Positions 51,958 to 61,780 of a stretch of DNA of 64,000 nucleotides are shown here, piece after piece; the first letter of the stretch is position 1, and each line of letters begins with the position of its first letter. Position numbers and translations under genes: made by a program. Source of the DNA: Thermoplasmata archaeon (GTDB lineage: Archaea > Thermoplasmatota > Thermoplasmata > RBG-16-68-12); the NCBI GenBank assembly GCA_035557795.1, contig DATMDM010000166.1:2735-66734 (forward strand), written 5' to 3'. The notes below the pieces were generated by a model. The model saw only the letters and a program-made list of their open reading frames with translations. It was not told the DNA's origin and ran no database searches.

Positions 51958-52788
51958 TCATCGTTGCGGGCCAAGACCCATCATCCCGCGTGCCTCGTCC
52001 GGCGACGCGACCTCCCGTTGGAGATCCTCCGCGAGGTGCCGCGCGCGCGCGACCAACTCCTCGTTTCGGGCGAGGACGCCTTTCTTTAGGTAGAGGTTGT
52101 CCTCGAGGCCCACGCGGACATGGCCGCCCAGGACGATCGCCATCGTCGTCATCGGGAGCTGCATCCGGGACATGCCCGCGACGACGTACGTCGCGGTCGG
52201 CGGGAGCTGATTGCGCATGTGCAGGAGATTCTCCGGGGTCGCGGGGACACCGCCGTCGACGCCCATGACGAGCTGGAAATGGGCCGGTTCCTTCACGAGG
52301 CCCGCATCGATCAGCCGTTTCCCTTGCTGGACGAAGCCGACATCGAAGGCCTCGAGCTCCGGCTTGATGTTCTGATCGAGCATCGTCTTCGCGAGAAACT
52401 GAACCGTCTCCGGTGTGTTCACGTAGACCACGGACGGCTTGCGCCCGACGAAGTTCAGGGTTCCCGTCGTGAGCGAGCCCATCTCCGGGCTCGTCTTCAA
52501 CGGCGTCGCACGATCCTCGTCCGTCTGGCCTGCGATGCCGCTCGTCGAGGTCATGACGACGAGCTTCGTCCGCTTGCGGATCTTGTCGACGCTCTCCCGG
52601 AAAATGTCGAATCGGGATGTGGGACGCTCGTTCTCGTCGCGGCAGTGGACATGGATGATCGCCGCACCTTCTTGCTCGGACAAATACGCGGTCTCTGCGA
52701 TCTCGTCCGGTGTCACGGGCACGTGGGGCGTGTCCTTCTTCCGCGGCACGGAGCCCGTCGGCGCGACCGTGATGATGAGCTTGTCCAT
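51958..52788 (-). CDS. kce: 3-keto-5-aminohexanoate cleavage enzyme family (BKACE/DUF849)
   Basis: N-terminal IITVAPTG and the TIM-barrel motif pattern of BKACE. 276 aa. Confidence 0.7.
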   Translation of the reverse strand: MDKLIITVAPTGSVPRKKDTPHVPVTPDEIAETAYLSEQEGAAIIHVHCRDENERPTSRFDIFRESVDKIRKRTKLVVMTSTSGIAGQTDEDRATPLKTSPEMGSLTTGTLNFVGRKPSVVYVNTPETVQFLAKTMLDQNIKPELEAFDVGFVQQGKRLIDAGLVKEPAHFQLVMGVDGGVPATPENLLHMRNQLPPTATYVVAGMSRMQLPMTTMAIVLGGHVRVGLEDNLYLKKGVLARNEELVARARHLAEDLQREVASPDEARGMMGLGPQR

Positions 52789-52876: not shown

Positions 52877-54619
52877 CTAGGCGAAGAGGTGGCACGACAC
52901 CTTGACGTCGGGGGCGATGCCCTTCAACTCCGGCTCCGTGAATTCGTGCAATGAAACCCGGATCCCGCCATCCGCACGCTCGATGGTCCGTATCGCCTTC
53001 AGCCCGCGGAACTCCTCCGCCTTCACTTCGATGATTCGACGGATCGACGCCTCGGCGTCCGGAGGCGCGGCCGGCATCGTGAAAACGAGCGGAGAATCCG
53101 CATGAAGGCCCGCGAAGAGTCCCTCCTCCGGCGTACCGGCCGCCAGGTCCTTCAGCTCGTCCACGACCTCCTTGACGGTCCAGCCACATCGTTCGAAGGC
53201 CACGGGGCATCGCGGATGGAACCGGCATCCGGGCGGGATGTCCGAGGGGTCCGGTCGCTCGCCTTTCAGGATGATGCGCTGCCGCCGTCGGTCCGGGTCG
53301 GGGACCGGCACGACGGACACGAGCGCTTTCGTGTACGGGTGCCGCGGATTCTTGATCAGCTCCCGCGTCGGCCCTTCTTCGACGATTTTCCCCAGGTACA
53401 TGACCCCGATGCGGTCCGCGAGGACCCACGCGAGGGAGAGGTCGTGGGTAATGAACAGGTAGGTGAGGCCTTTCTTCTCGCGCAGCTCCAGGAGCAGCTC
53501 GAGGATCTCCGTGCGGATCGACACGTCGAGCATCGAGACGGGCTCGTCGGCCACCAGGAACTCGGGATCCAGGACGAGGGCGCCCGCGATCGACACGCGC
53601 TGTCGCTGGCCTCCGGAGAGCTCGTGCGGATATCGGAACAGGAAGTCCCGCGGCGGTCGCAAGCCTGCGTCGGATAGGGCCTGCTCGACCCGCGCTTCGG
53701 TCTCGGCGCGGTTCCGGCTGAGTCTATTCACGATCAGCGGCTCCGCGACGATGTCGTACACGGAGTGTTTCGGATTCAGCGACTCGTACGGATCCTGGAA
53801 GATGATCTGGAGCTTCTGCCGCAAGCCTTGGATCTTGATCCCCTCGAGGCCCTCCTCCCGCAACCGGTTCCAAATGAGGACCCGGCCGACGAGGACCGCG
53901 ACGACGAACGCGAAGAGAGTGCCACCGAGCATCGCGACGGTCTGAACGCCCCACACCTGGGATTGATACAGCCCGCCCGCGTCGATGTACCCGGAGAACA
54001 CGAGGCCAAGGTACGTGCTCACGTTGAACAAGAGGACCGCAAGGCCCCCGAGGACGGTCGTGGTCCGCGGCGTCGGCCGAGTCGGCGGGATGCTCCCGAA
54101 ATAAGCGACCAGGAGGGCGACAATCAGCCCGTAGCCGATGTAACTCAAGCCGTTCGTGAAGGGGAGATGGAACACCGACGCGGAGACGAGCGCGGGCAAT
54201 GCCGTCGCGATCAGACCTGCGACCGCGATGACGATCCCGAGGAGGACGAAGTGCGGGATGGTCCAGGGCCGGTCTTCTTTCCAGGAGAGGGAGTGCTGCC
54301 GGCGAATCGTCTCCAGGTCCGCGGAGCCGTGGCCCGCTTTCGCGGCCTCGTAGTCGTCGAGGACGTTCTTCGGCACCCCGACGAAGACGTCGCCCCCGGT
54401 CGGCGGGACGAGCCTCAGGATTCCCTTGCCCGTCGTCGTCTTCCCGCATCCGCTCTCTCCCACGAGGCAGAAGATCTCTCCCCTCCCGACGTCGAGGTCG
54501 ACCCCGTCGACCGCGCGCACGTATTCCGGCGTAGTCTTTCGCAACGCCGCGAGGAATCCCCGGCGCTTCTCGAACCATACGCGGAAATCGCGCAGGACGA
54601 GGTACGGCTCGCGGGTCAC
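52877..54619 (-). CDS. oppF: Oligopeptide/dipeptide ABC transporter ATPase (OppF/DppF type) carrying a ~190-aa multi-helix hydrophobic insertion after Walker A
   Basis: Walker A GESGCGKTT, then a long hydrophobic segment, then IFQDPYESLNP Q-loop, LSGGQRQR signature, Walker B and the C-terminal Opp domain. 580 aa. Confidence 0.7.
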   Translation of the reverse strand: MTREPYLVLRDFRVWFEKRRGFLAALRKTTPEYVRAVDGVDLDVGRGEIFCLVGESGCGKTTTGKGILRLVPPTGGDVFVGVPKNVLDDYEAAKAGHGSADLETIRRQHSLSWKEDRPWTIPHFVLLGIVIAVAGLIATALPALVSASVFHLPFTNGLSYIGYGLIVALLVAYFGSIPPTRPTPRTTTVLGGLAVLLFNVSTYLGLVFSGYIDAGGLYQSQVWGVQTVAMLGGTLFAFVVAVLVGRVLIWNRLREEGLEGIKIQGLRQKLQIIFQDPYESLNPKHSVYDIVAEPLIVNRLSRNRAETEARVEQALSDAGLRPPRDFLFRYPHELSGGQRQRVSIAGALVLDPEFLVADEPVSMLDVSIRTEILELLLELREKKGLTYLFITHDLSLAWVLADRIGVMYLGKIVEEGPTRELIKNPRHPYTKALVSVVPVPDPDRRRQRIILKGERPDPSDIPPGCRFHPRCPVAFERCGWTVKEVVDELKDLAAGTPEEGLFAGLHADSPLVFTMPAAPPDAEASIRRIIEVKAEEFRGLKAIRTIERADGGIRVSLHEFTEPELKGIAPDVKVSCHLFA

Positions 54620-54620
54620 C

Positions 54621-55601
54621 TCACGTCGCCTCCCTCGGCGGCGGCGTCGTGGTGTTCAGGTGGCACGCCGCGAAGTGGCCCTCGCCCACCGGGTCGAGTC
54701 CCGGTTCCTGGTCGACGCAGAGCGGCCATGCGTACTTGCATCGCGGGTGGAAGCGGCAGCCGACCGGCGGGTTGATCAACGAGGGCAACAGGCCCGGTAT
54801 GTACGCCGGCAGGGTCTGCGGCCCCTCGATGTCCGGGAACGCGCCGATCAGGTCTTTCGTGTACGGGTGTTTCGCGTCCTTGTAGACGTCCCGCACGCTC
54901 CCGCGCTCGACGATCTTCCCGGCGTACATGATCGCCATCGAGTCGCACGTCTCCGCCATGACGCTGAGGTCGTGGGAGATCAGGATCATCGACAGGTCGA
55001 GTTCGCGCTTGAGTCGCTCGAGGAGTTCCAGGATCTGCGCCTGGATCATGACGTCCAGTGCGGTCACGGGTTCGTCCGCGATGACGATCCTGGGATTGCA
55101 TGCGAGGGCCATCGCGATCATCACGCGTTGCCGCATGCCGCCGGAGAACTCGTGCGGGTACTCCCGGGCGCGCTCGCGGTGGATGCCGACGAGTTCGAGC
55201 AGCTCGCCGACGCGCTTCATCGCGGCTTCCTTGTCCACCTTGTCGTGGATGACGATCGGCTCCGCGATCTGGTCCCCGATCCGCTTCACCGGATTCAGGG
55301 CGTTCATCGCCCCTTGGAAGATGATCGAGATGTGCTTCCATCGGATCCCGCGGAGCTGGCCCTCCGTGACCTTCGCGAGGTCATACCCGACGTAATCGAT
55401 CGTCCCATCGACGATCTTCCCGTTCGACGGGAGGAGACGCATGATCGACAGGGCAGCCGTCGTCTTGCCGCAGCCGCTCTCCCCCGCGAGCCCGAGGCTC
55501 TCGCCCTCGCCCAAGGTGAAGTCGACGCCGTCGACCGCACGGACGGTCCCCTCCTGGGTCTGGAAATGCGTCTTGAGCCCCTTCACCGTCAGGAGCGGCA
55601 T
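54621..55601 (-). CDS. oppD: Oligopeptide/dipeptide ABC transporter ATPase (OppD/DppD type)
   Basis: GESGCGKTT, FQGAMNALNP, FSGGMRQR, Walker B, C-terminal Opp domain. Starts at MPLLTVKG. Confidence 0.8.
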   Translation of the reverse strand: MPLLTVKGLKTHFQTQEGTVRAVDGVDFTLGEGESLGLAGESGCGKTTAALSIMRLLPSNGKIVDGTIDYVGYDLAKVTEGQLRGIRWKHISIIFQGAMNALNPVKRIGDQIAEPIVIHDKVDKEAAMKRVGELLELVGIHRERAREYPHEFSGGMRQRVMIAMALACNPRIVIADEPVTALDVMIQAQILELLERLKRELDLSMILISHDLSVMAETCDSMAIMYAGKIVERGSVRDVYKDAKHPYTKDLIGAFPDIEGPQTLPAYIPGLLPSLINPPVGCRFHPRCKYAWPLCVDQEPGLDPVGEGHFAACHLNTTTPPPREAT

Positions 55602-55731
55602 TGTTACCGCTCCGCGGAATGGGTCGGACGAGCTCGGGAACCCGTTTTTCGGAGCGTATATCGAGGACGCCGGGAAGCGCCTTAACGTTTTCTCAGACGC
55701 GCACCCAGTTCGAGCGCATCGTATAAGGGGA

Positions 55732-57036
55732 ATGGGGCTTTCGCGGTTCACGAAGCCGGTGTCATCCTCCGATTTGCGGACGCGCGTGCGTCGCTTCTAC
55801 GCGTACCAGACCGCATCGTCGTTCGCGATCTGGATCCCGTTCTGGGCGCTGTGGATTCGCGGCCATCTGTCCTCCGACTTCGAATTCACGCTCGTCGACG
55901 TCGCCTTCTGGGTCGGGCTCCTCGTGTTCCAGCTCCCCGTCGGCGTCGTCGCAGACCGCACGCCGCGGAGACGGACGATCGTCCTGAGCGAGTTGTTCCG
56001 CTCGGCGGGCATCCTGGGCTACGGCATCAGCGCAACGTTCTGGGGATTCGTCGCGGCCAACGTTGTCTGGTCGCTCGGAGCGGCGTTCTCGATCGGGACC
56101 TCCGCGTATCTGTACGAGACGTTGCTCGAGGCGGGCCACGAGACGGAGTTCCCGCGGTATATCGGCCGGGTCACGATGATCCAGCTCCTCTCGAACGCGG
56201 CGGGAGCCTTCGTCGGCGGCGTGTTCGTCGGGGTGGTGGGGGACCTGCGACTCACCCTCTTGGTCGGCGCGATCCTGAATCTCGGAGCGATCGGCGTTGC
56301 GGTCACGTTCCGCGAGCCGAAGGTCGAGCGAACTCCCGAATCGACCTACGTGGAGCAACTCGTGCAAGGCCTGCGGGTCGTGCGTCGACGGGAGGGCGTC
56401 GCCTTGTTGATCGGAGTCGAGGTGTTCCTCGGCGTCACGCTTTACGTGATGGCCGTGTTCCGGCCGCTGTACCTCCAGGCGCTCGGCCTCTCCGAATCCG
56501 TGATCGCGATTTCGATCAGCGGCTTCCTCCTCGTCGCGGCGATCTGGTCCGCGTTCGCGGGAACGATCACGCGGGTCCTCGGCGAATTCGGGACGCTCGC
56601 CCTCCTAGTCCTCATGGCGTCCGCCGCGTTTTTCGGCATGTACGGCGCGGGACAATTTCCCGGCGCGGCGCTGGTCCAGGTGCCCCTGTACATCGTCTGG
56701 AGTCTGCAGCCAGCCCTCACGACCGCGTTCCTGAACCGCCGGCTCGAGCCCGGCCAGCGGGCGACCGTGTTGTCGATGGGCGCGTTCGCGTACACGTTGG
56801 GCCTCGTGATCGTCGAGCCGCTCGCGGGCGCGCTCACGACGACGACGGGATTGCTGAACCTCGGACTCTTCCTCGGGGTCGTGACGTTCTTCCCATGCGC
56901 CTACATCCTCGCACGCTGGCGCACGACCGTCGCCGCGTGGCCCGCGGTGACTCCGCTGCCGTCCCGGCTGATCGCAGGCCACCGCGTGTCGCGGTTCCAT
57001 CGCCTCCTGGAGAGGATGAGCCGCCTCAGGCCGTGA
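55732..57036 (+). CDS. MFS transporter
   Basis: 12 predicted TM helices and MFS-like loop motifs. Trimmed to M98 of the listed ORF. Confidence 0.55.
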   Translation: MGLSRFTKPVSSSDLRTRVRRFYAYQTASSFAIWIPFWALWIRGHLSSDFEFTLVDVAFWVGLLVFQLPVGVVADRTPRRRTIVLSELFRSAGILGYGISATFWGFVAANVVWSLGAAFSIGTSAYLYETLLEAGHETEFPRYIGRVTMIQLLSNAAGAFVGGVFVGVVGDLRLTLLVGAILNLGAIGVAVTFREPKVERTPESTYVEQLVQGLRVVRRREGVALLIGVEVFLGVTLYVMAVFRPLYLQALGLSESVIAISISGFLLVAAIWSAFAGTITRVLGEFGTLALLVLMASAAFFGMYGAGQFPGAALVQVPLYIVWSLQPALTTAFLNRRLEPGQRATVLSMGAFAYTLGLVIVEPLAGALTTTTGLLNLGLFLGVVTFFPCAYILARWRTTVAAWPAVTPLPSRLIAGHRVSRFHRLLERMSRLRP

Positions 57037-58824
57037 CGGTCACGTCGGTCGGGGTGGGTGGCGTCACGAGGTGGCACGCCGCGGCGTTCCCGGGCTCGAG
57101 CTCCACGAGCGGCGGCTCGCTCCACGCGTGCATCGAGGCGTAGACGTATCCGGCGCTCACCCGGACCTCGGCGATGCCCTTCAGCGCGAGCCGCGAGGAT
57201 CGGTGTTCCGCTACGAAGGTGCGGAGACCCTCGGCGACGGCCTCGGGGGTCGCACCGGGAGCGAGCGCGATGCCGATCGTCTTCGGATCCTGGGCCTGCA
57301 ACGCCGCGATCCCGGTCAGCATCCCTTTGCCCTGGAGGGATCTCAGCTCGTCGACGGCCTCGTCCGCGGTCCAGCCACATCGCTCGAACGCAACGGGACA
57401 CCGGGGATGGAATCGACAACCGGCCGGAATGTTCACCGGATCCGGCCGCTCGCCCTTCAAGATCACGCGGTCCACTTTCTTCCGGGGGTCCGGACTCGGG
57501 ACGACGGAGATGAGCGCCTGCGTGTACGGATGCTTCGGGTGCCCGATGACCTGTTCCGCCGTCCCGATCTCGACGATCTTCCCCAGGTACATGACCGCGA
57601 TCCGGTCGGCGAGGACCCATGCGAGCCCGAGGTCGTGCGTGATGAACAGGTACGTGAGCCCTTTCTTCTCGCGGAGCTCGAGGAGGAGCTGGAGGATGTC
57701 CGTCCGGATCGACACGTCGAGCATCGACACCGGTTCGTCCGCCACGACGAACTCCGGTTCGAGGGCGAGCGCCGCGGCGATCGAGACGCGCTGCCGCTGC
57801 CCGCCGCTCAGCTCGTGCGGGAACCGGAACATCAGCTCCTCGGCGGGGCGGAGGCCGGCGTCGTTCAGCGCCCTCGTTACCTGAGCCACCGTCTCCTCCT
57901 GGGACGACGTCAATCGGTTCACCCGCACAGGCTCCGAGACGATCTCGAAGACGCTTTGCTTCGGGTTCAGGGACTCGTACGGATCCTGGAAGATCATGTG
58001 GAGGCGCCGCCGCATGCTCCGGATCTTGATCCCGGCGAGCCCTTCCGAGGTCGATCGGAGGTCCAGGATGACGCGGGACAATCCCGCGGCGAGGCCGGGC
58101 GCGAACACCAGTCCGATCAACATCGCGAACGCGGTGTCTGTCCACAGGAATCCGAGTGCGCTCGGGACATCGAACCGCGCCCCCGGCCCTTGGAGGACGA
58201 CCGCGTACAGGTCTAGCGCGAACAGGGGACCGATGTTCATGATTCCGAGGGCGAGGAGCGCGAGGAATGCGGGCGTGCGTCGGGTTGGTCGCGAAGGCGG
58301 CAAGGATCCCACCGTGCCGAGGACGAAGCCGATGAAGATCGATGTGCCGAGGACCATCCACTGGTTCGTGAACGGTTGCTGGAGCAGCGCGACCAACAAG
58401 GCCGGCACCGTCAGCGCGAGAAAGGCCGCGACGACGATCGCGGCGGTCGTCGTGAGGATGTCCCTCGGCGTCCACGGGTCGTTCGGAATCCAAGTGAACG
58501 AGTATCGTCGTCGAAGATCCTCCAGGGTGGCGGCCTGGGCCGGGTCGTCCGGGTGATTCCGAGCCTCCTCGTACCGGCGGTAGTCGGCGTCCGGCATCTC
58601 GAACAAGACATCGCCGTCCGTGGGCTCGGCGAGTCGCAGGAGCGCCTTGCCCGTCGTCGTCTTGCCACAGCCGCTCTCCCCGACGAGGCACAAGATCTCC
58701 CGCCGTCGGACGTCGAGGTCGATCCCGTCGACCGCCTTGACCCAGGCGTCCCCGGAGCCCAGGACGTCCTTGAGCAGGCCCCGTCGCTGCGAGAACCAGA
58801 CTTTCAGGCCGCGGACGCGGATCA
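57026..58824 (-). CDS. oppF: Second OppF-type ABC ATPase with the same post-Walker-A membrane insertion
   Basis: Same architecture as 52877..54619 (GESGCGKTT, TM insert, IFQDPYESLNP, LSGGQRQR). True start is GTG (VIRVRGLKVWF) overlapping the oppD-2 stop. The listed 763-aa ORF N-terminus is antisense GC junk. Confidence 0.65.
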
Positions 58825-59817
58825 CGGCGTCGCTGCGAGCGGACGCGGGGATACCTCCGGGACTTGCGGATACAGGAAACAGGCGGCCCGGCGCCGCGGG
58901 GTGACTTCGGCGAGGGCCGGCTCGGCGGCCGTGCAGCGGTCGAACGCGAACTTGCATCGCGGGTGGAACACGCACCCCGCCGGCGGTGAGATAAGGCTGG
59001 GAACGAGACCCGGAATCGACGACGGCATGACTCGCGGTCCCCGCACGTCCGGGAAGGCGCCGACCAGGCCCTGCGTGTACGGATGCTTCGGATCCGTGAA
59101 CACGTCGACCGTGCTCCCGAGCTCCATGATCTTGCCAGCATACATGATGGCGATTCGTTCGCACGTTTCCGCCATGACGCTGAGGTCGTGGGAAATCAGG
59201 ATCATGGACAGGTGGAGATCCCGCCGGAGTCGCTCGAGGAGGTCTAGGATTTGCGCTTGGATCATCACGTCGAGGGCCGTGACCGGCTCGTCGGCGATCA
59301 CGAGTTTCGGGTTGCACGCGAGGGCCATGGCGATCATCACCCGCTGCCGCATGCCGCCGGAGAACTCATGGGGAAAGTCTCGGACGCGGGCTCGCGGGAT
59401 GCCGACCAGCTCGAGGAGCTCTTCGGCCCGCCGCATCGCCTCCGGCTCTTGCACCTTCTCGTGGAGGACGATCGGTTCGGCGATTTGGCGGCCGATCCGC
59501 CGGACCGGGTTCAAGGAGTTCATCGCGCCTTGGAAGATGATCGAGATGTCTTTCCATCGAACGTTCCGGATCGCGGTCTCCGAGGCGCGGGTGAGGTCTC
59601 GACCGTTGAAGCGGATCCGGCCGCGAACGATCTTCCCGTTGTACGGCAAGAGGCGCATGAGTGCCAACGCAGTCGTGGTCTTGCCGCATCCGCTCTCCCC
59701 GGCGAGGCCGAGCGCCTCGCCCTCCTCCAGGCCGAACGAGACGCCTTCGACCGCGTGGACCGTCCCCTCTTGCGTCGTGTACTCGACGACGAGGTCCTCG
59801 ACCTCGAGGAGCGGAAT
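58822..59817 (-). CDS. oppD: Second OppD-type ABC ATPase; start codon anomalous (ATT where the paralog has ATG)
   Basis: The full N-terminal domain (IPLLEVEDLVVEYTTQEGTVHAVEGVSFGLEEGEALGLAGESGCGKTT) is encoded in frame after a stop. The only ATG, GTG or TTG is far downstream (TTG at ALMRLLP). Confidence 0.55.
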   Translation of the reverse strand: MPLLEVEDLVVEYTTQEGTVHAVEGVSFGLEEGEALGLAGESGCGKTTTALALMRLLPYNGKIVRGRIRFNGRDLTRASETAIRNVRWKDISIIFQGAMNSLNPVRRIGRQIAEPIVLHEKVQEPEAMRRAEELLELVGIPRARVRDFPHEFSGGMRQRVMIAMALACNPKLVIADEPVTALDVMIQAQILDLLERLRRDLHLSMILISHDLSVMAETCERIAIMYAGKIMELGSTVDVFTDPKHPYTQGLVGAFPDVRGPRVMPSSIPGLVPSLISPPAGCVFHPRCKFAFDRCTAAEPALAEVTPRRRAACFLYPQVPEVSPRPLAATP

Positions 59818-59818
59818 C

Positions 59819-60751
59819 CTACCGCCTCCGGAGACGCGGGTTCAGGATTTCATCGAGCGCGTATCCGAAGAGGTAGAACCCGAACACGAGGAAGACGATG
59901 CACAGCCCCGGGACGATTAGCCAGCCCGGATTCCCGATGCCGATTGCGTTGTTGTCGATCGCCTCGTCGATGATCTTCCCCCAGCTCACCGTGTTCGTCG
60001 GCGAGAGACGCAAGAATGCGAGGACGCTCTCCGACAGGATCGAGACCGCGACGGTCAGGATTGTGTTCGCGAAGATGAGCGGGAAGGCGTTCGGGAAGAT
60101 GTGCCGAAGCAGGATCCGCCAACTCGGGACCCCGATCATCCGGGCCCGCTCGATGAACACCCGCTCTTTGATGCTGAGCACCTGGCTGCGGATGACCCGA
60201 GCCGTCACGGACCAACCCGTGAGGCCGATGACAAGGATGAGTCCCGTGAGGTCGATCACCCCCAGCTTGGCGGCGACGATGATCATGAGCACGAGCCAAG
60301 GGATCGACAGGACCACGTCGTTGAAGCGCATCATGACCTCGTCGAGCCAGCCTCCCGCGAAACCGGAGATGAGGCCGACCGCGGTCCCGACGACGCTGGC
60401 CACGACCGCGGACGCGATTCCCACGATGAGGGAGGTCTGGGTCCCCCAGATGATTTGGGAGTAGATGTCGAAGCTGAAGTAGTTCGTCCCGAGCGGATGC
60501 AGGGGATTGGGCCGCTGCAGGAACGACGTCGGGTTGGAGTCGGAGACGGCCTGGCGGGGACCGTACGGCGCGAGCCACGGTGCGGCGAGCGCGAGGAACG
60601 TGAAGAAGATGAGGATGCCCATCCCGGCCATCGCGGTGCGACTATGGTAGATCTGGGTCCACACGTCGCGGAACCGTCGATACGCGACGATCAGCGATGC
60701 GCGGAGGATCGAAACCGACGGCCTCTTGATGATGACTTCCGTCGCGCCCAT
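59819..60751 (-). CDS. oppC: Oligopeptide/dipeptide ABC transporter permease (OppC/DppC)
   Basis: BPD_transp_1 EAA-loop region and 6 TM helices. 310 aa. Confidence 0.8.
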   Translation of the reverse strand: MGATEVIIKRPSVSILRASLIVAYRRFRDVWTQIYHSRTAMAGMGILIFFTFLALAAPWLAPYGPRQAVSDSNPTSFLQRPNPLHPLGTNYFSFDIYSQIIWGTQTSLIVGIASAVVASVVGTAVGLISGFAGGWLDEVMMRFNDVVLSIPWLVLMIIVAAKLGVIDLTGLILVIGLTGWSVTARVIRSQVLSIKERVFIERARMIGVPSWRILLRHIFPNAFPLIFANTILTVAVSILSESVLAFLRLSPTNTVSWGKIIDEAIDNNAIGIGNPGWLIVPGLCIVFLVFGFYLFGYALDEILNPRLRRR

Positions 60752-60760
60752 TTCGACCCC

Positions 60761-61780
60761 CTAGGCGACCTTGATTCGCGGGTCGAGGTAGAGCAGCAGG
60801 AAATCGGAGACGAGGTTGGCGAGGACGATGGCGACGCCGCCCACGACGATGATGAACTGGAGGAGCGGGTAGTCGAGGTTGTGAATCGCCTCGATCGTCC
60901 GCCAGCCGATCCCCCGGTAGTTGAAGACCCACTCGACCTGGTACGCCCCGCCGAGGATGAACGCGATGTCCAGGGCGATGAGGGACACCATCGGCGGCAA
61001 GCCGTTCGGGAAGATATGCCGACGGAGCACTTGTCGATCGCTGAGCCCCTTCGCCTTTGCGGTCGTCACGAAATCCTCCGTCATCACGTCGATGAGGGAG
61101 CTTCGCATGACGAGGGAGATGCCGGCCAGGGTTCCGACGCTCAACGTGAGGGCCGGCAGGATCAGATGGGTGGACACGCTCGCGATATGGGCCCAGTCCC
61201 AGGCCCATTGCTGGGGGAACGGCGGGTCGTCGAGGTAGCCGCCGGACGGCAGCACAGGCCACCACGAGAAATATCCCTTCAGGAAGGAGCTCCTCGAAAA
61301 GGCGACTTGGAGGACGATCCCCAGCCAGAAGATTGGCATGCCGTAGAAGAAGATGCTGAGGCCCGTCGAGGCGAGATCGAACGGTCGTCCGCGCTTCACC
61401 GCGGCATATGAGCCGACGATCATCCCGATCAAGATCGTGAAGATGGTCGACGTCCCGACGAGGAGGAGCGTCCAGCCGAGGTCGTGGAAGAGGAGGTCCG
61501 CCACGGGCGCGCGCCAGAAGTACGAGTAGCCCCAGTTGAGGGTGACCGTGTTCTGCAGGTAGATGACGAACTGTTCGAACGGAGGCTTGTCGAGTCCGAA
61601 CAGTTCGGCGTTTGCTTTCGCGAGGCCGATGAACTGGGTATTCCTCGGTACTAAGGCGAGGTTCGGGTCTCCGGGCATCAGCCGGATCAGCACGTAGTTC
61701 AGGCAGATGATCCCGAAGATCGTGACGACCGCGTTGATCGATCGCCGAATGACGACCCTCAGGACCTTGCCCATGGGCAT
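60761..61780 (-). CDS. oppB: Oligopeptide/dipeptide ABC transporter permease (OppB/DppB)
   Basis: N-terminal VLRVVIRRSINAVVT and the OppB layout. 339 aa. Confidence 0.8.
   Translation of the reverse strand: MPMGKVLRVVIRRSINAVVTIFGIICLNYVLIRLMPGDPNLALVPRNTQFIGLAKANAELFGLDKPPFEQFVIYLQNTVTLNWGYSYFWRAPVADLLFHDLGWTLLLVGTSTIFTILIGMIVGSYAAVKRGRPFDLASTGLSIFFYGMPIFWLGIVLQVAFSRSSFLKGYFSWWPVLPSGGYLDDPPFPQQWAWDWAHIASVSTHLILPALTLSVGTLAGISLVMRSSLIDVMTEDFVTTAKAKGLSDRQVLRRHIFPNGLPPMVSLIALDIAFILGGAYQVEWVFNYRGIGWRTIEAIHNLDYPLLQFIIVVGGVAIVLANLVSDFLLLYLDPRIKVA

Follow-up and report, generated by a model that had tools for sequence, protein, structure and literature searches.

The nucleotide-binding domain (NBD) is the archetypal soluble, interchangeable engine of ATP-binding cassette (ABC) transporters, in which the Q-loop couples ATP binding to the transmembrane domains, and to our knowledge it is a peripheral subunit in every solved importer. 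Large functional modules interrupt the ABC fold in Rad50/SMC (a coiled coil), UvrA (the insertion and UvrB-binding domains) and CFTR (the regulatory insertion of NBD1). In these proteins the fold accommodates a large module between the Walker A lobe and later motifs, and the module contributes a function while catalysis is retained. These inserts are soluble (coiled coil, zinc modules and a disordered loop) and are located at other points of the fold; we know of none among them that spans the membrane. Membrane helices and an ABC ATPase are likewise found in one polypeptide in half-size and full-size ABC transporters such as Sav1866, MsbA and MacB. The closest described relatives of the proteins considered here are the canonical OppF and DppF ATPases of the PepT family (TC 3.A.1.5), which are approximately 330 amino acids long. 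We examined two OppF-type proteins, OppF1 and OppF2, encoded within 64,000 nucleotides of Thermoplasmata archaeon contig DATMDM010000166.1; this whole 64-kb stretch is referred to as the window. Both proteins are of a known kind, the OppF-type ATPase, but carry a predicted membrane domain inside the NBD. The genes and the elements of this architecture are as follows.

52877-54619, minus strand: oppF2, an OppF/DppF-type ABC ATPase of 580 aa with two lineage-specific insertions
57026-58825, minus strand: oppF1, a paralogue of oppF2, 599 aa, in which both insertions are also present; final gene of the substrate-binding protein (SBP)-oppB-oppC-oppD1-oppF1 operon
54434-54460, minus strand: Walker A of OppF2, GESGCGKTT, residues 54-62 (read from the sequence)
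53849-54358, minus strand: insert of OppF2 (about 170 aa, residues 88-257), in which two linker helices precede a predicted four-helix membrane bundle (DppF alignment, AlphaFold2 (AF2), hydropathy)
53771-53812, minus strand: strand and Q-loop of OppF2, LQIIFQDPYESLNP, residues 270-283 (Pfam, alignment, AF2)
58040-58579, minus strand: insert of OppF1, approximately residues 83-262, four hydrophobic helices (hydropathy, alignment)

The assignment of both proteins to the OppF type is based on several lines of evidence. The Pfam ABC_tran profile matches OppF2 with E = 1.9e-24, and in each OppF the match is split into two stretches, with profile position 52 resuming near residue 261/266; in both OppD proteins of the window the match is unbroken. 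The oligo_HPY domain (PF08352) is found at residues 413-478 of OppF2 (E = 1.1e-21) and in OppF1 (E = 6.9e-21). NCBIfam ranks both proteins nearest to DppF/OppF, under every curated cut-off and always in two stretches (293 bits vs a cut-off of 408 for PRK11308, 272 vs 540 for OppF, and 270 vs 660 for DppF). The nearest solved structures are E. coli OppF (PDB 8z21_D) and DppF (8z1v_D); no PDB chain aligns with OppF2 over more than 286 residues, and ABC exporters with fused membrane domains align with it through the NBD only. In an alignment of 74 full-length homologues, Walker A (GESGCGKTT, 54-62), Q275, SGGQ (335-338), D358-E359 and H392 (OppF2 numbering) are invariant, and conservation is complete in the oligo_HPY domain and the groove-forming regions. 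Every catalytic motif is retained in OppF and, judging by sequence, the ATPase is complete.

Once residues 88-257 are removed, OppF2 and residues 11-309 of E. coli DppF (8z1v_D) form a colinear alignment, in which a gap of a single residue marks the junction. The insertion is therefore a clean block with a net size of about 170 aa, not the approximately 190 aa proposed in the sequence-only reading of this DNA. The insertion site extends from the beta-hairpin downstream of the Walker A helix (GGDVFVGVPKNVL) to the segment entering the Q-loop strand (LEGIKIQGLRQKLQIIFQDP), with junction residues L87/D88 and G257/L258. The distance between Walker A and the Q-loop is approximately 212 aa in OppF2, compared to about 45 aa in DppF. 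Unlike OppF2, canonical OppF and DppF possess neither the four-helix domain of about 170 aa before the Q-loop strand nor a second domain, of about 81 aa, in the Fe-S region. The core claim of that reading, an in-frame hydrophobic multi-helix insert within the OppF-type NBD of both paralogues, is borne out by the open frames, the DppF alignment and hydropathy. The same holds for the uniformly high GC content (0.62-0.67 along oppF2, including the insert) and for the moderate identity between the two copies, which is 50% over the whole proteins and 33-34% within the insert.

An apparent insert of this sort might be an artefact or a mobile element, produced by a gene-fusing frameshift, a chimeric assembly or an intein-like selfish insertion; one related contig (L001, encoding protein P0016) is full of frameshifts, and otherwise only the unusual protein length points in this direction. 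However, oppF2 is a single uninterrupted frame of 580 aa with a GTG start 1 nt past the oppD2 stop and a GGAGG about 9 nt upstream, and the 599-aa oppF1 frame has a GTG start at 58825 that overlaps the oppD1 stop as GTGA. (The end of oppF1 had earlier been placed at 58824, a position that is out of frame by one base; the 763-aa open reading frame (ORF) listed over this gene is an upstream read-through into oppD1.) The frame is continuous in both paralogues, and full-length homologues with identical architecture occur in many independent assemblies, including contigs of more than 1 Mb; a frameshift or two-gene fusion was rejected on these grounds. An intein or other mobile insert was rejected as well, since there is no Hint match, the junctions lack intein residues, the GC composition is uniform and the insert is under purifying selection. 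The absence of Hint or intein motifs stated in the earlier reading was reproduced, with no Pfam match to the OppF2 insert at E <= 10. We regard the probability of an artefactual or mobile origin as practically nil. Contig L001 itself (JGI 3300024330, Ga0137417_1462351; 5.5 kb) matches window positions 58233-60995 twice, in opposite orientations (98% and 95%), and P0016 is a frameshifted mixture of OppD and OppF frames; because of the double inverted match and the frameshifted P0016, this contig looks like an assembly artefact.

The membrane character of the insert was assessed by hydropathy analysis, structure prediction and charge distribution. The Kyte-Doolittle profile has four hydrophobic peaks (1.9-2.8) in each paralogue. 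An AF2 model of OppF2, built on the 74-sequence alignment, has a mean pLDDT of 81 and a pTM of 0.63; it predicts four long helices at residues 121-149, 157-175, 185-208 and 214-256 (pLDDT 84-94), two short linker helices ahead of the bundle (84-94 and 102-109), and an additional helix (259-269) leading straight into the strand at 270-273 ahead of the Q-loop. Hydropathy in both paralogues and the AF2 model of OppF2 thus agree on four helices, fewer than the five to six suggested previously. The predicted transmembrane (TM) helices of OppF2 are:

54173-54259, minus strand: TM1, residues 121-149 (AF2 helix; Kyte-Doolittle peak 2.76)
54095-54151, minus strand: TM2, residues 157-175 (AF2, hydropathy); a conserved cytoplasmic motif with P178 follows directly
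53996-54067, minus strand: TM3, residues 185-208 (AF2, hydropathy)
53870-53941, minus strand: TM4, residues 227-250 (AF2); the helix extends into the cytoplasm to 256, is followed by 259-269 and enters the pre-Q-loop strand

Both ends of the insert must be cytoplasmic, because the NBD has to fold. The distribution of positive charges is consistent with this topology: averaged over the 74 members, the predicted cytoplasmic segments contain 3.3 (ahead of TM1), 2.05 (from TM2 to TM3) and 3.0 (beyond TM4) K+R per 10 aa, compared to 0.54 and 0.33 for the two loops predicted to be external. Members with longer inserts (P0113, P0133, P0100 and P0132; proteins of 640-682 aa) have six predicted helices, which is still an even number. 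In P0132 (682 aa; locus L013, 8001-10049) the extra helix pair is a tandem duplication of the TM1-TM2 hairpin (residues ~120-270; local alignment z = 7.5, 0/300 shuffles), and no internal repeat was detectable in the other three six-helix members, P0113, P0133 and P0100. A crude helix predictor gave five helices for P0072 and P0074. The even helix count (four or six), the positive-inside rule across 74 members and the confidently predicted AF2 helices strongly support the membrane-embedded character proposed earlier, the four long helices of the insert being predicted with pLDDT 84-94 in the full-length structure. On this basis, the predicted domain consists of four helices arranged as two hairpins, with both ends in the cytoplasm, and is built into a surface loop of the NBD.

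In order to determine how widely this architecture is distributed, we searched sequence collections with the full-length protein; 8000 matches were returned and the best 120 clusters were considered. The architecture was found in at least 120 protein clusters (52-96% identity); nearly all of these are approximately 574-682 aa long and aligned with full coverage, and they derive from NCBI, ENA, JGI and Logan assemblies, with some contigs exceeding 1 Mb. All 74 aligned full-length homologues carry the insert, at the same position and with a length of 183-217 aa, which greatly exceeds chance expectation. A scan with an insert-derived pattern over one genome per GTDB species identified ten loci in nine Thermoplasmata/Methanobacteriota metagenome-assembled genomes (MAGs), all from soil; more generally, homologues with a named organism belong to uncultured Thermoplasmata/Methanobacteriota MAGs, mostly from soil. 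The window DNA is 82-99% identical to and syntenic with those loci, the closest being isolate EA_12. Searches with the insert alone recovered far less: word-indexed searches returned 15 fragments and one fragment, and an exhaustive hidden Markov model search with a six-sequence insert profile returned 16 representatives. With the exception of one repetitive protein of 2983 aa, these all appear to be fragments or to belong to this family. The family is larger than the profile search suggests, because the insert changes rapidly and the members are merged into few 50% clusters through their conserved NBD. Since both paralogues and all family members carry the insert, it predates their duplication; it is ancient and specific to one Thermoplasmata clade. 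The earlier proposal that the insert is conserved, and not a recent artefact, therefore holds for at least 120 clusters from independent assemblies as well as for the two paralogues.

Conservation is unevenly distributed along the insert. The frequency of the commonest residue is 0.37-0.48 in the membrane helices vs 0.89 in the core, which makes the helices the least conserved part of the protein. The linker contains the conserved motif L..YE.A[KR]A...LE..RRR.SL[ST]Y[KR]E, in which R106 and S110 are invariant, the motif G[ST][IL]PP.[KR] with the invariant P178 is located just after TM2, and a conserved basic stretch, W.RR.G.E.D[KR].R.LR[KR].LQIIFQDP, follows TM4. The best-conserved insert positions are cytoplasmic and juxtamembrane, not intramembrane. 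This pattern fits helices that would mostly face lipid, with juxtamembrane parts that may pack on the NBD itself or on the coupling region of the permease. Among seven orthologues (Nei-Gojobori method), dN/dS of the insert in close pairs is 0.13-0.24, compared to 0.03-0.06 for the NBD core; the codon data indicate that the insert is under purifying selection, though looser than the core.

The insert is a structurally surprising feature conserved in an uncultured clade, and its nearest possible precedent is found in Mollicutes. There, OppD and OppF are also PepT-family ATPases with hundreds of extra residues within the NBD, and the M. synoviae OppF is 797 aa long (PMC7456371). The NCBIfam models NF043079 (MMSYN1_0167 OppD) and NF043078 (MMSYN1_0168 OppF) comprise 561 and 649 positions, respectively. 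In the Mycoplasma OppD model the block from the Q-loop to Walker B corresponds to profile positions 303-475, and because it begins at 303, Walker A and the Q-loop must be separated by about 210 additional positions, at approximately the archaeal site; in the OppF model the extra positions appear elsewhere in the fold, both comparisons being made via profile lengths and coordinates only. The Mollicutes are Bacteria and unrelated to the archaeal family, and the search with the archaeal insert profile found no Mollicutes OppD or OppF proteins. The enlarged Mollicutes proteins may be a convergent parallel.

These observations bear on the possibility that the insert is a neutral passenger, i.e. an old in-frame hydrophobic insertion in a permissive surface loop that is kept because its removal would disturb folding. 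The non-synonymous evolution of the insert, which is roughly 4-5 times faster than that of the NBD core, is consistent with this explanation, as is the lack of recognizable homologues of the insert outside the family; in Mycoplasma OppD, too, this loop seems to tolerate large inserts, to judge from the NCBIfam profile coordinates. However, dN/dS values of 0.13-0.24 in close pairs are well under 1, and the length of 183-217 aa, the even number of helices, the positive-inside pattern and the three invariant residues are all kept down to 52% identity and in both paralogues. Moreover, a hydrophobic segment of about 100 residues that is left uninserted or misinserted in a cytoplasmic enzyme would presumably be costly. 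A passenger without function is therefore an improbable explanation.

We also compared the insert with known membrane domains. Pfam scans of both membrane inserts and of the C-terminal insert at E <= 10 returned nothing meaningful, the only match of the OppF1 insert being sub-threshold (FtsX, E = 0.9). Neither membrane insert showed significant similarity to the ABC transporter membrane families BPD_transp_1, ABC_membrane, ABC2_membrane or FtsX. Aligned with the OppC and OppB proteins of the window (hhalign), the insert profile gave probabilities of 0.3% and 0.2%, i.e. no detectable homology, and an origin from the neighboring permease was rejected on this basis. The suggestion of a fusion with a small transporter domain was thus not supported by homology to OppB, OppC or any Pfam membrane family, and membrane helices that evolve fastest within the protein are unfitting for a substrate pathway. 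No Pfam or NCBIfam model and no PDB entry covers the insert, and the literature searched yielded no account of membrane helices within an ABC NBD, which is absence of evidence and not proof; one apparent literature match, a TldR/oppF preprint, proved irrelevant. The architecture does seem to be undescribed, as the sequence-only reading had supposed, given that no family model, solved structure or paper was found.

Further evidence comes from the genomic neighborhood of the two ATPases, in which the following genes are encoded.

54621-55751, minus strand: oppD2, partner ATPase with an unbroken ABC_tran match and a canonical four-Cys C-terminus; the true start is probably inside the ORF
58822-59667, minus strand: oppD1, partner ATPase without the insert; the listed ORF is truncated at TTG and the true start is upstream
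59819-60751, minus strand: oppC permease, OppC_N and BPD_transp_1, 310 aa
60761-61780, minus strand: oppB permease, BPD_transp_1_N and BPD_transp_1, 339 aa
61821-63962, minus strand: family-5 substrate-binding protein, two PKD domains, C-terminal membrane anchor

On the minus strand, oppF1 belongs to a complete operon that extends from the binding-protein gene through oppB, oppC and oppD1. By contrast, oppF2 is adjoined only by oppD2, with no permease or binding-protein genes beside the pair, and the window contains only one oppB/oppC pair. The oppD2-oppF2 pair is syntenic with genes for a beta-keto acid cleavage enzyme (BKACE; 51958-52788), class-III aminotransferases and an amidohydrolase, and the arrangement recurs in syntenic form in loci L002-L010 (e.g. 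L009 7-2715). Orphan D-F pairs are also found in distant relatives (L013 7024-10049), and in L012 a D-F pair is located 3 kb from an oppC-oppB-SBP unit. None of the OppD partners, either in the window or among the relatives examined, carries the insert. The binding protein of the operon has a proline-rich tail in addition to its C-terminal membrane helix, and its N-terminus probably lies beyond the end of the window, because the SBP_bac_5 profile match begins at position 67.

Pairs such as oppD2-oppF2 and the one in L013, which have no adjacent permease or binding-protein genes, raise the question of whether the insert is itself a minimal transmembrane domain. If so, orphan OppD-OppF pairs would act without OppB and OppC by using the four (or six) OppF helices and would represent a new kind of transporter or membrane ATPase; the synteny of D2-F2 with catabolic genes (beta-keto acid cleavage enzyme, class-III aminotransferases) is in line with this idea. 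However, OppF1 has the same insert and ends a complete SBP-oppB-oppC-oppD-oppF operon, and the L012 pair lies just 3 kb from a permease and binding-protein unit. The helices are present in only one of the two ATPase subunits and are poorly conserved (0.37-0.48 vs 0.89 for the core), they show no homology to any transporter membrane domain, and the full conservation of the oligo_HPY domain and the groove-forming regions speaks against this explanation too. A self-sufficient transmembrane domain is, in our assessment, very improbable.

We propose instead that the insert is a lineage-specific membrane anchor or docking module, which would make OppF an integral subunit of the Opp importer, and we assign this interpretation a probability of roughly 55%. 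According to this proposal, OppF would be an integral membrane subunit adjoining the OppB/OppC translocator, and the insert would permanently tether the OppD-OppF ATPase pair to both the membrane and the translocator, thereby stabilizing the complex. In E. coli DppBCDF the F subunit pairs with DppC (PMC12136057), and for this reason the bundle is most likely located on the OppC side; a bundle next to OppC would bring the complex to a total of 16 helices. Anchoring might also allow D-F pairs encoded apart from permeases, such as oppD2-oppF2 and the L013 pair, to find permeases encoded elsewhere. The linker motif, the post-TM2 loop and the basic helix between TM4 and the Q-loop would pack on the NBD or on the coupling region, and a secondary effect of the insert on ATPase coupling is plausible. 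Lipid-facing anchor helices fit the data better than a substrate path, because the helices are variable and conservation is found in the juxtamembrane motifs on the cytoplasmic side.

Several considerations weigh against this anchor or docking role. Anchoring alone has no obvious need of four helices or of conserved linker motifs, and soluble shared ATPases such as MsiK work without an anchor. The argument from orphan D-F pairs is circumstantial, since the permeases may have come to be encoded elsewhere through unrelated causes. Relaxed selection on the insert would also be expected of a tolerated, weakly functional segment. The position of the helices relative to OppB/OppC or to the membrane face of the NBD is one that we infer by analogy, and the full-length polypeptide is known from the genes of uncultured organisms alone.

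The connection between the bundle and the Q-loop allows two further interpretations. The first is that the insert is a regulatory or sensory module, in which the bundle would sense a membrane signal and the rigid helix from TM4 to the Q-loop would gate ATP hydrolysis. Candidate signals are the lipid state, the membrane potential, the C-terminal anchor of the binding protein, or another membrane protein, and the effect would be akin to that of the C-terminal regulatory domains of MalK and MetN or of the CFTR NBD1 regulatory insertion, except that the signal would be read within the membrane. Such a role is consistent with the AF2 model, in which TM4 runs as a helix directly into the Q-loop-bearing strand, and with the finding that conservation within the insert is highest in the cytoplasmic linker and loop motifs rather than in the membrane helices. 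Additionally, the second lineage-specific domain in the Fe-S region suggests that the family has accumulated accessory modules, and a binding protein with a C-terminal membrane anchor could be the partner. However, no ligand-binding or sensor fold was detected, and the fast-evolving helices argue against a specific intramembrane binding site; we therefore view a sensory function as a tentative possibility. The second interpretation goes further than the anchor proposal and treats OppF as a third membrane-embedded importer subunit that is active in the transport cycle, with the bundle wired to the Q-loop strand by a continuous helix. It would transmit ATP-dependent movement into the membrane or dock the membrane-anchored binding protein. 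We consider such an active role doubtful.

The second insertion of the OppF proteins is located in the C-terminal 4Fe-4S motif.

52895-53185, minus strand: second insertion of OppF2 (residues 479-575), which adds about 81 aa as an alpha/beta domain and separates the third from the fourth Cys of the C-terminal 4Fe-4S motif

The cluster ligands of E. coli DppF are Cys293/299/306/323 (PMC12136057). In OppF2 the first three cysteines (Cys465/471/478) are spaced by 6 and 7 residues, as in E. coli DppF, and the fourth (Cys576, in a conserved CHL motif) is found 98 residues further on, compared to 17 in DppF. One protein from a 1065-bp JGI contig, P0010 (295 aa), combines an NBD that is approximately 90% identical to that of OppF2 with the C-terminal half of the insert, and ends in a canonical short Fe-S motif (CPQAMPVCAEIEPVLREQAAGHRAACHLYGT) where OppF2 has the 98-residue domain. 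It could be either a chimeric short contig or a real variant without the second insertion.

Two other features of the window were noted. An MFS transporter gene (55441-57036, plus strand) is located between the two opp units; it is convergent with oppF1, with a stop overlap of about 10 nt, and divergent from oppD2, and its listed ORF start overlaps oppD2, the real start probably being further downstream. A tRNA-Pro(TGG) was called at 2268-2363 on the plus strand, and its 96 nt are long enough for an intron, in keeping with an archaeal origin.

A membrane domain threaded through the middle of an NBD implies that the fold can withstand insertion into the membrane during translation, when only half of it has been synthesized. 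The family is consequently a natural test of NBD attachment, of the asymmetry between the D and F subunits and of Q-loop mechanics in coupling, and if OppF does act as an active membrane subunit, it would represent an ABC importer architecture without a solved or described counterpart. There is also a consequence for annotation: these proteins are named simply 'oligopeptide/dipeptide ABC transporter ATP-binding protein', and pipelines that sort soluble from membrane proteins will misplace them. Peptide uptake is presumably central to heterotrophic soil Thermoplasmata, and the feature is therefore probably relevant to their physiology.

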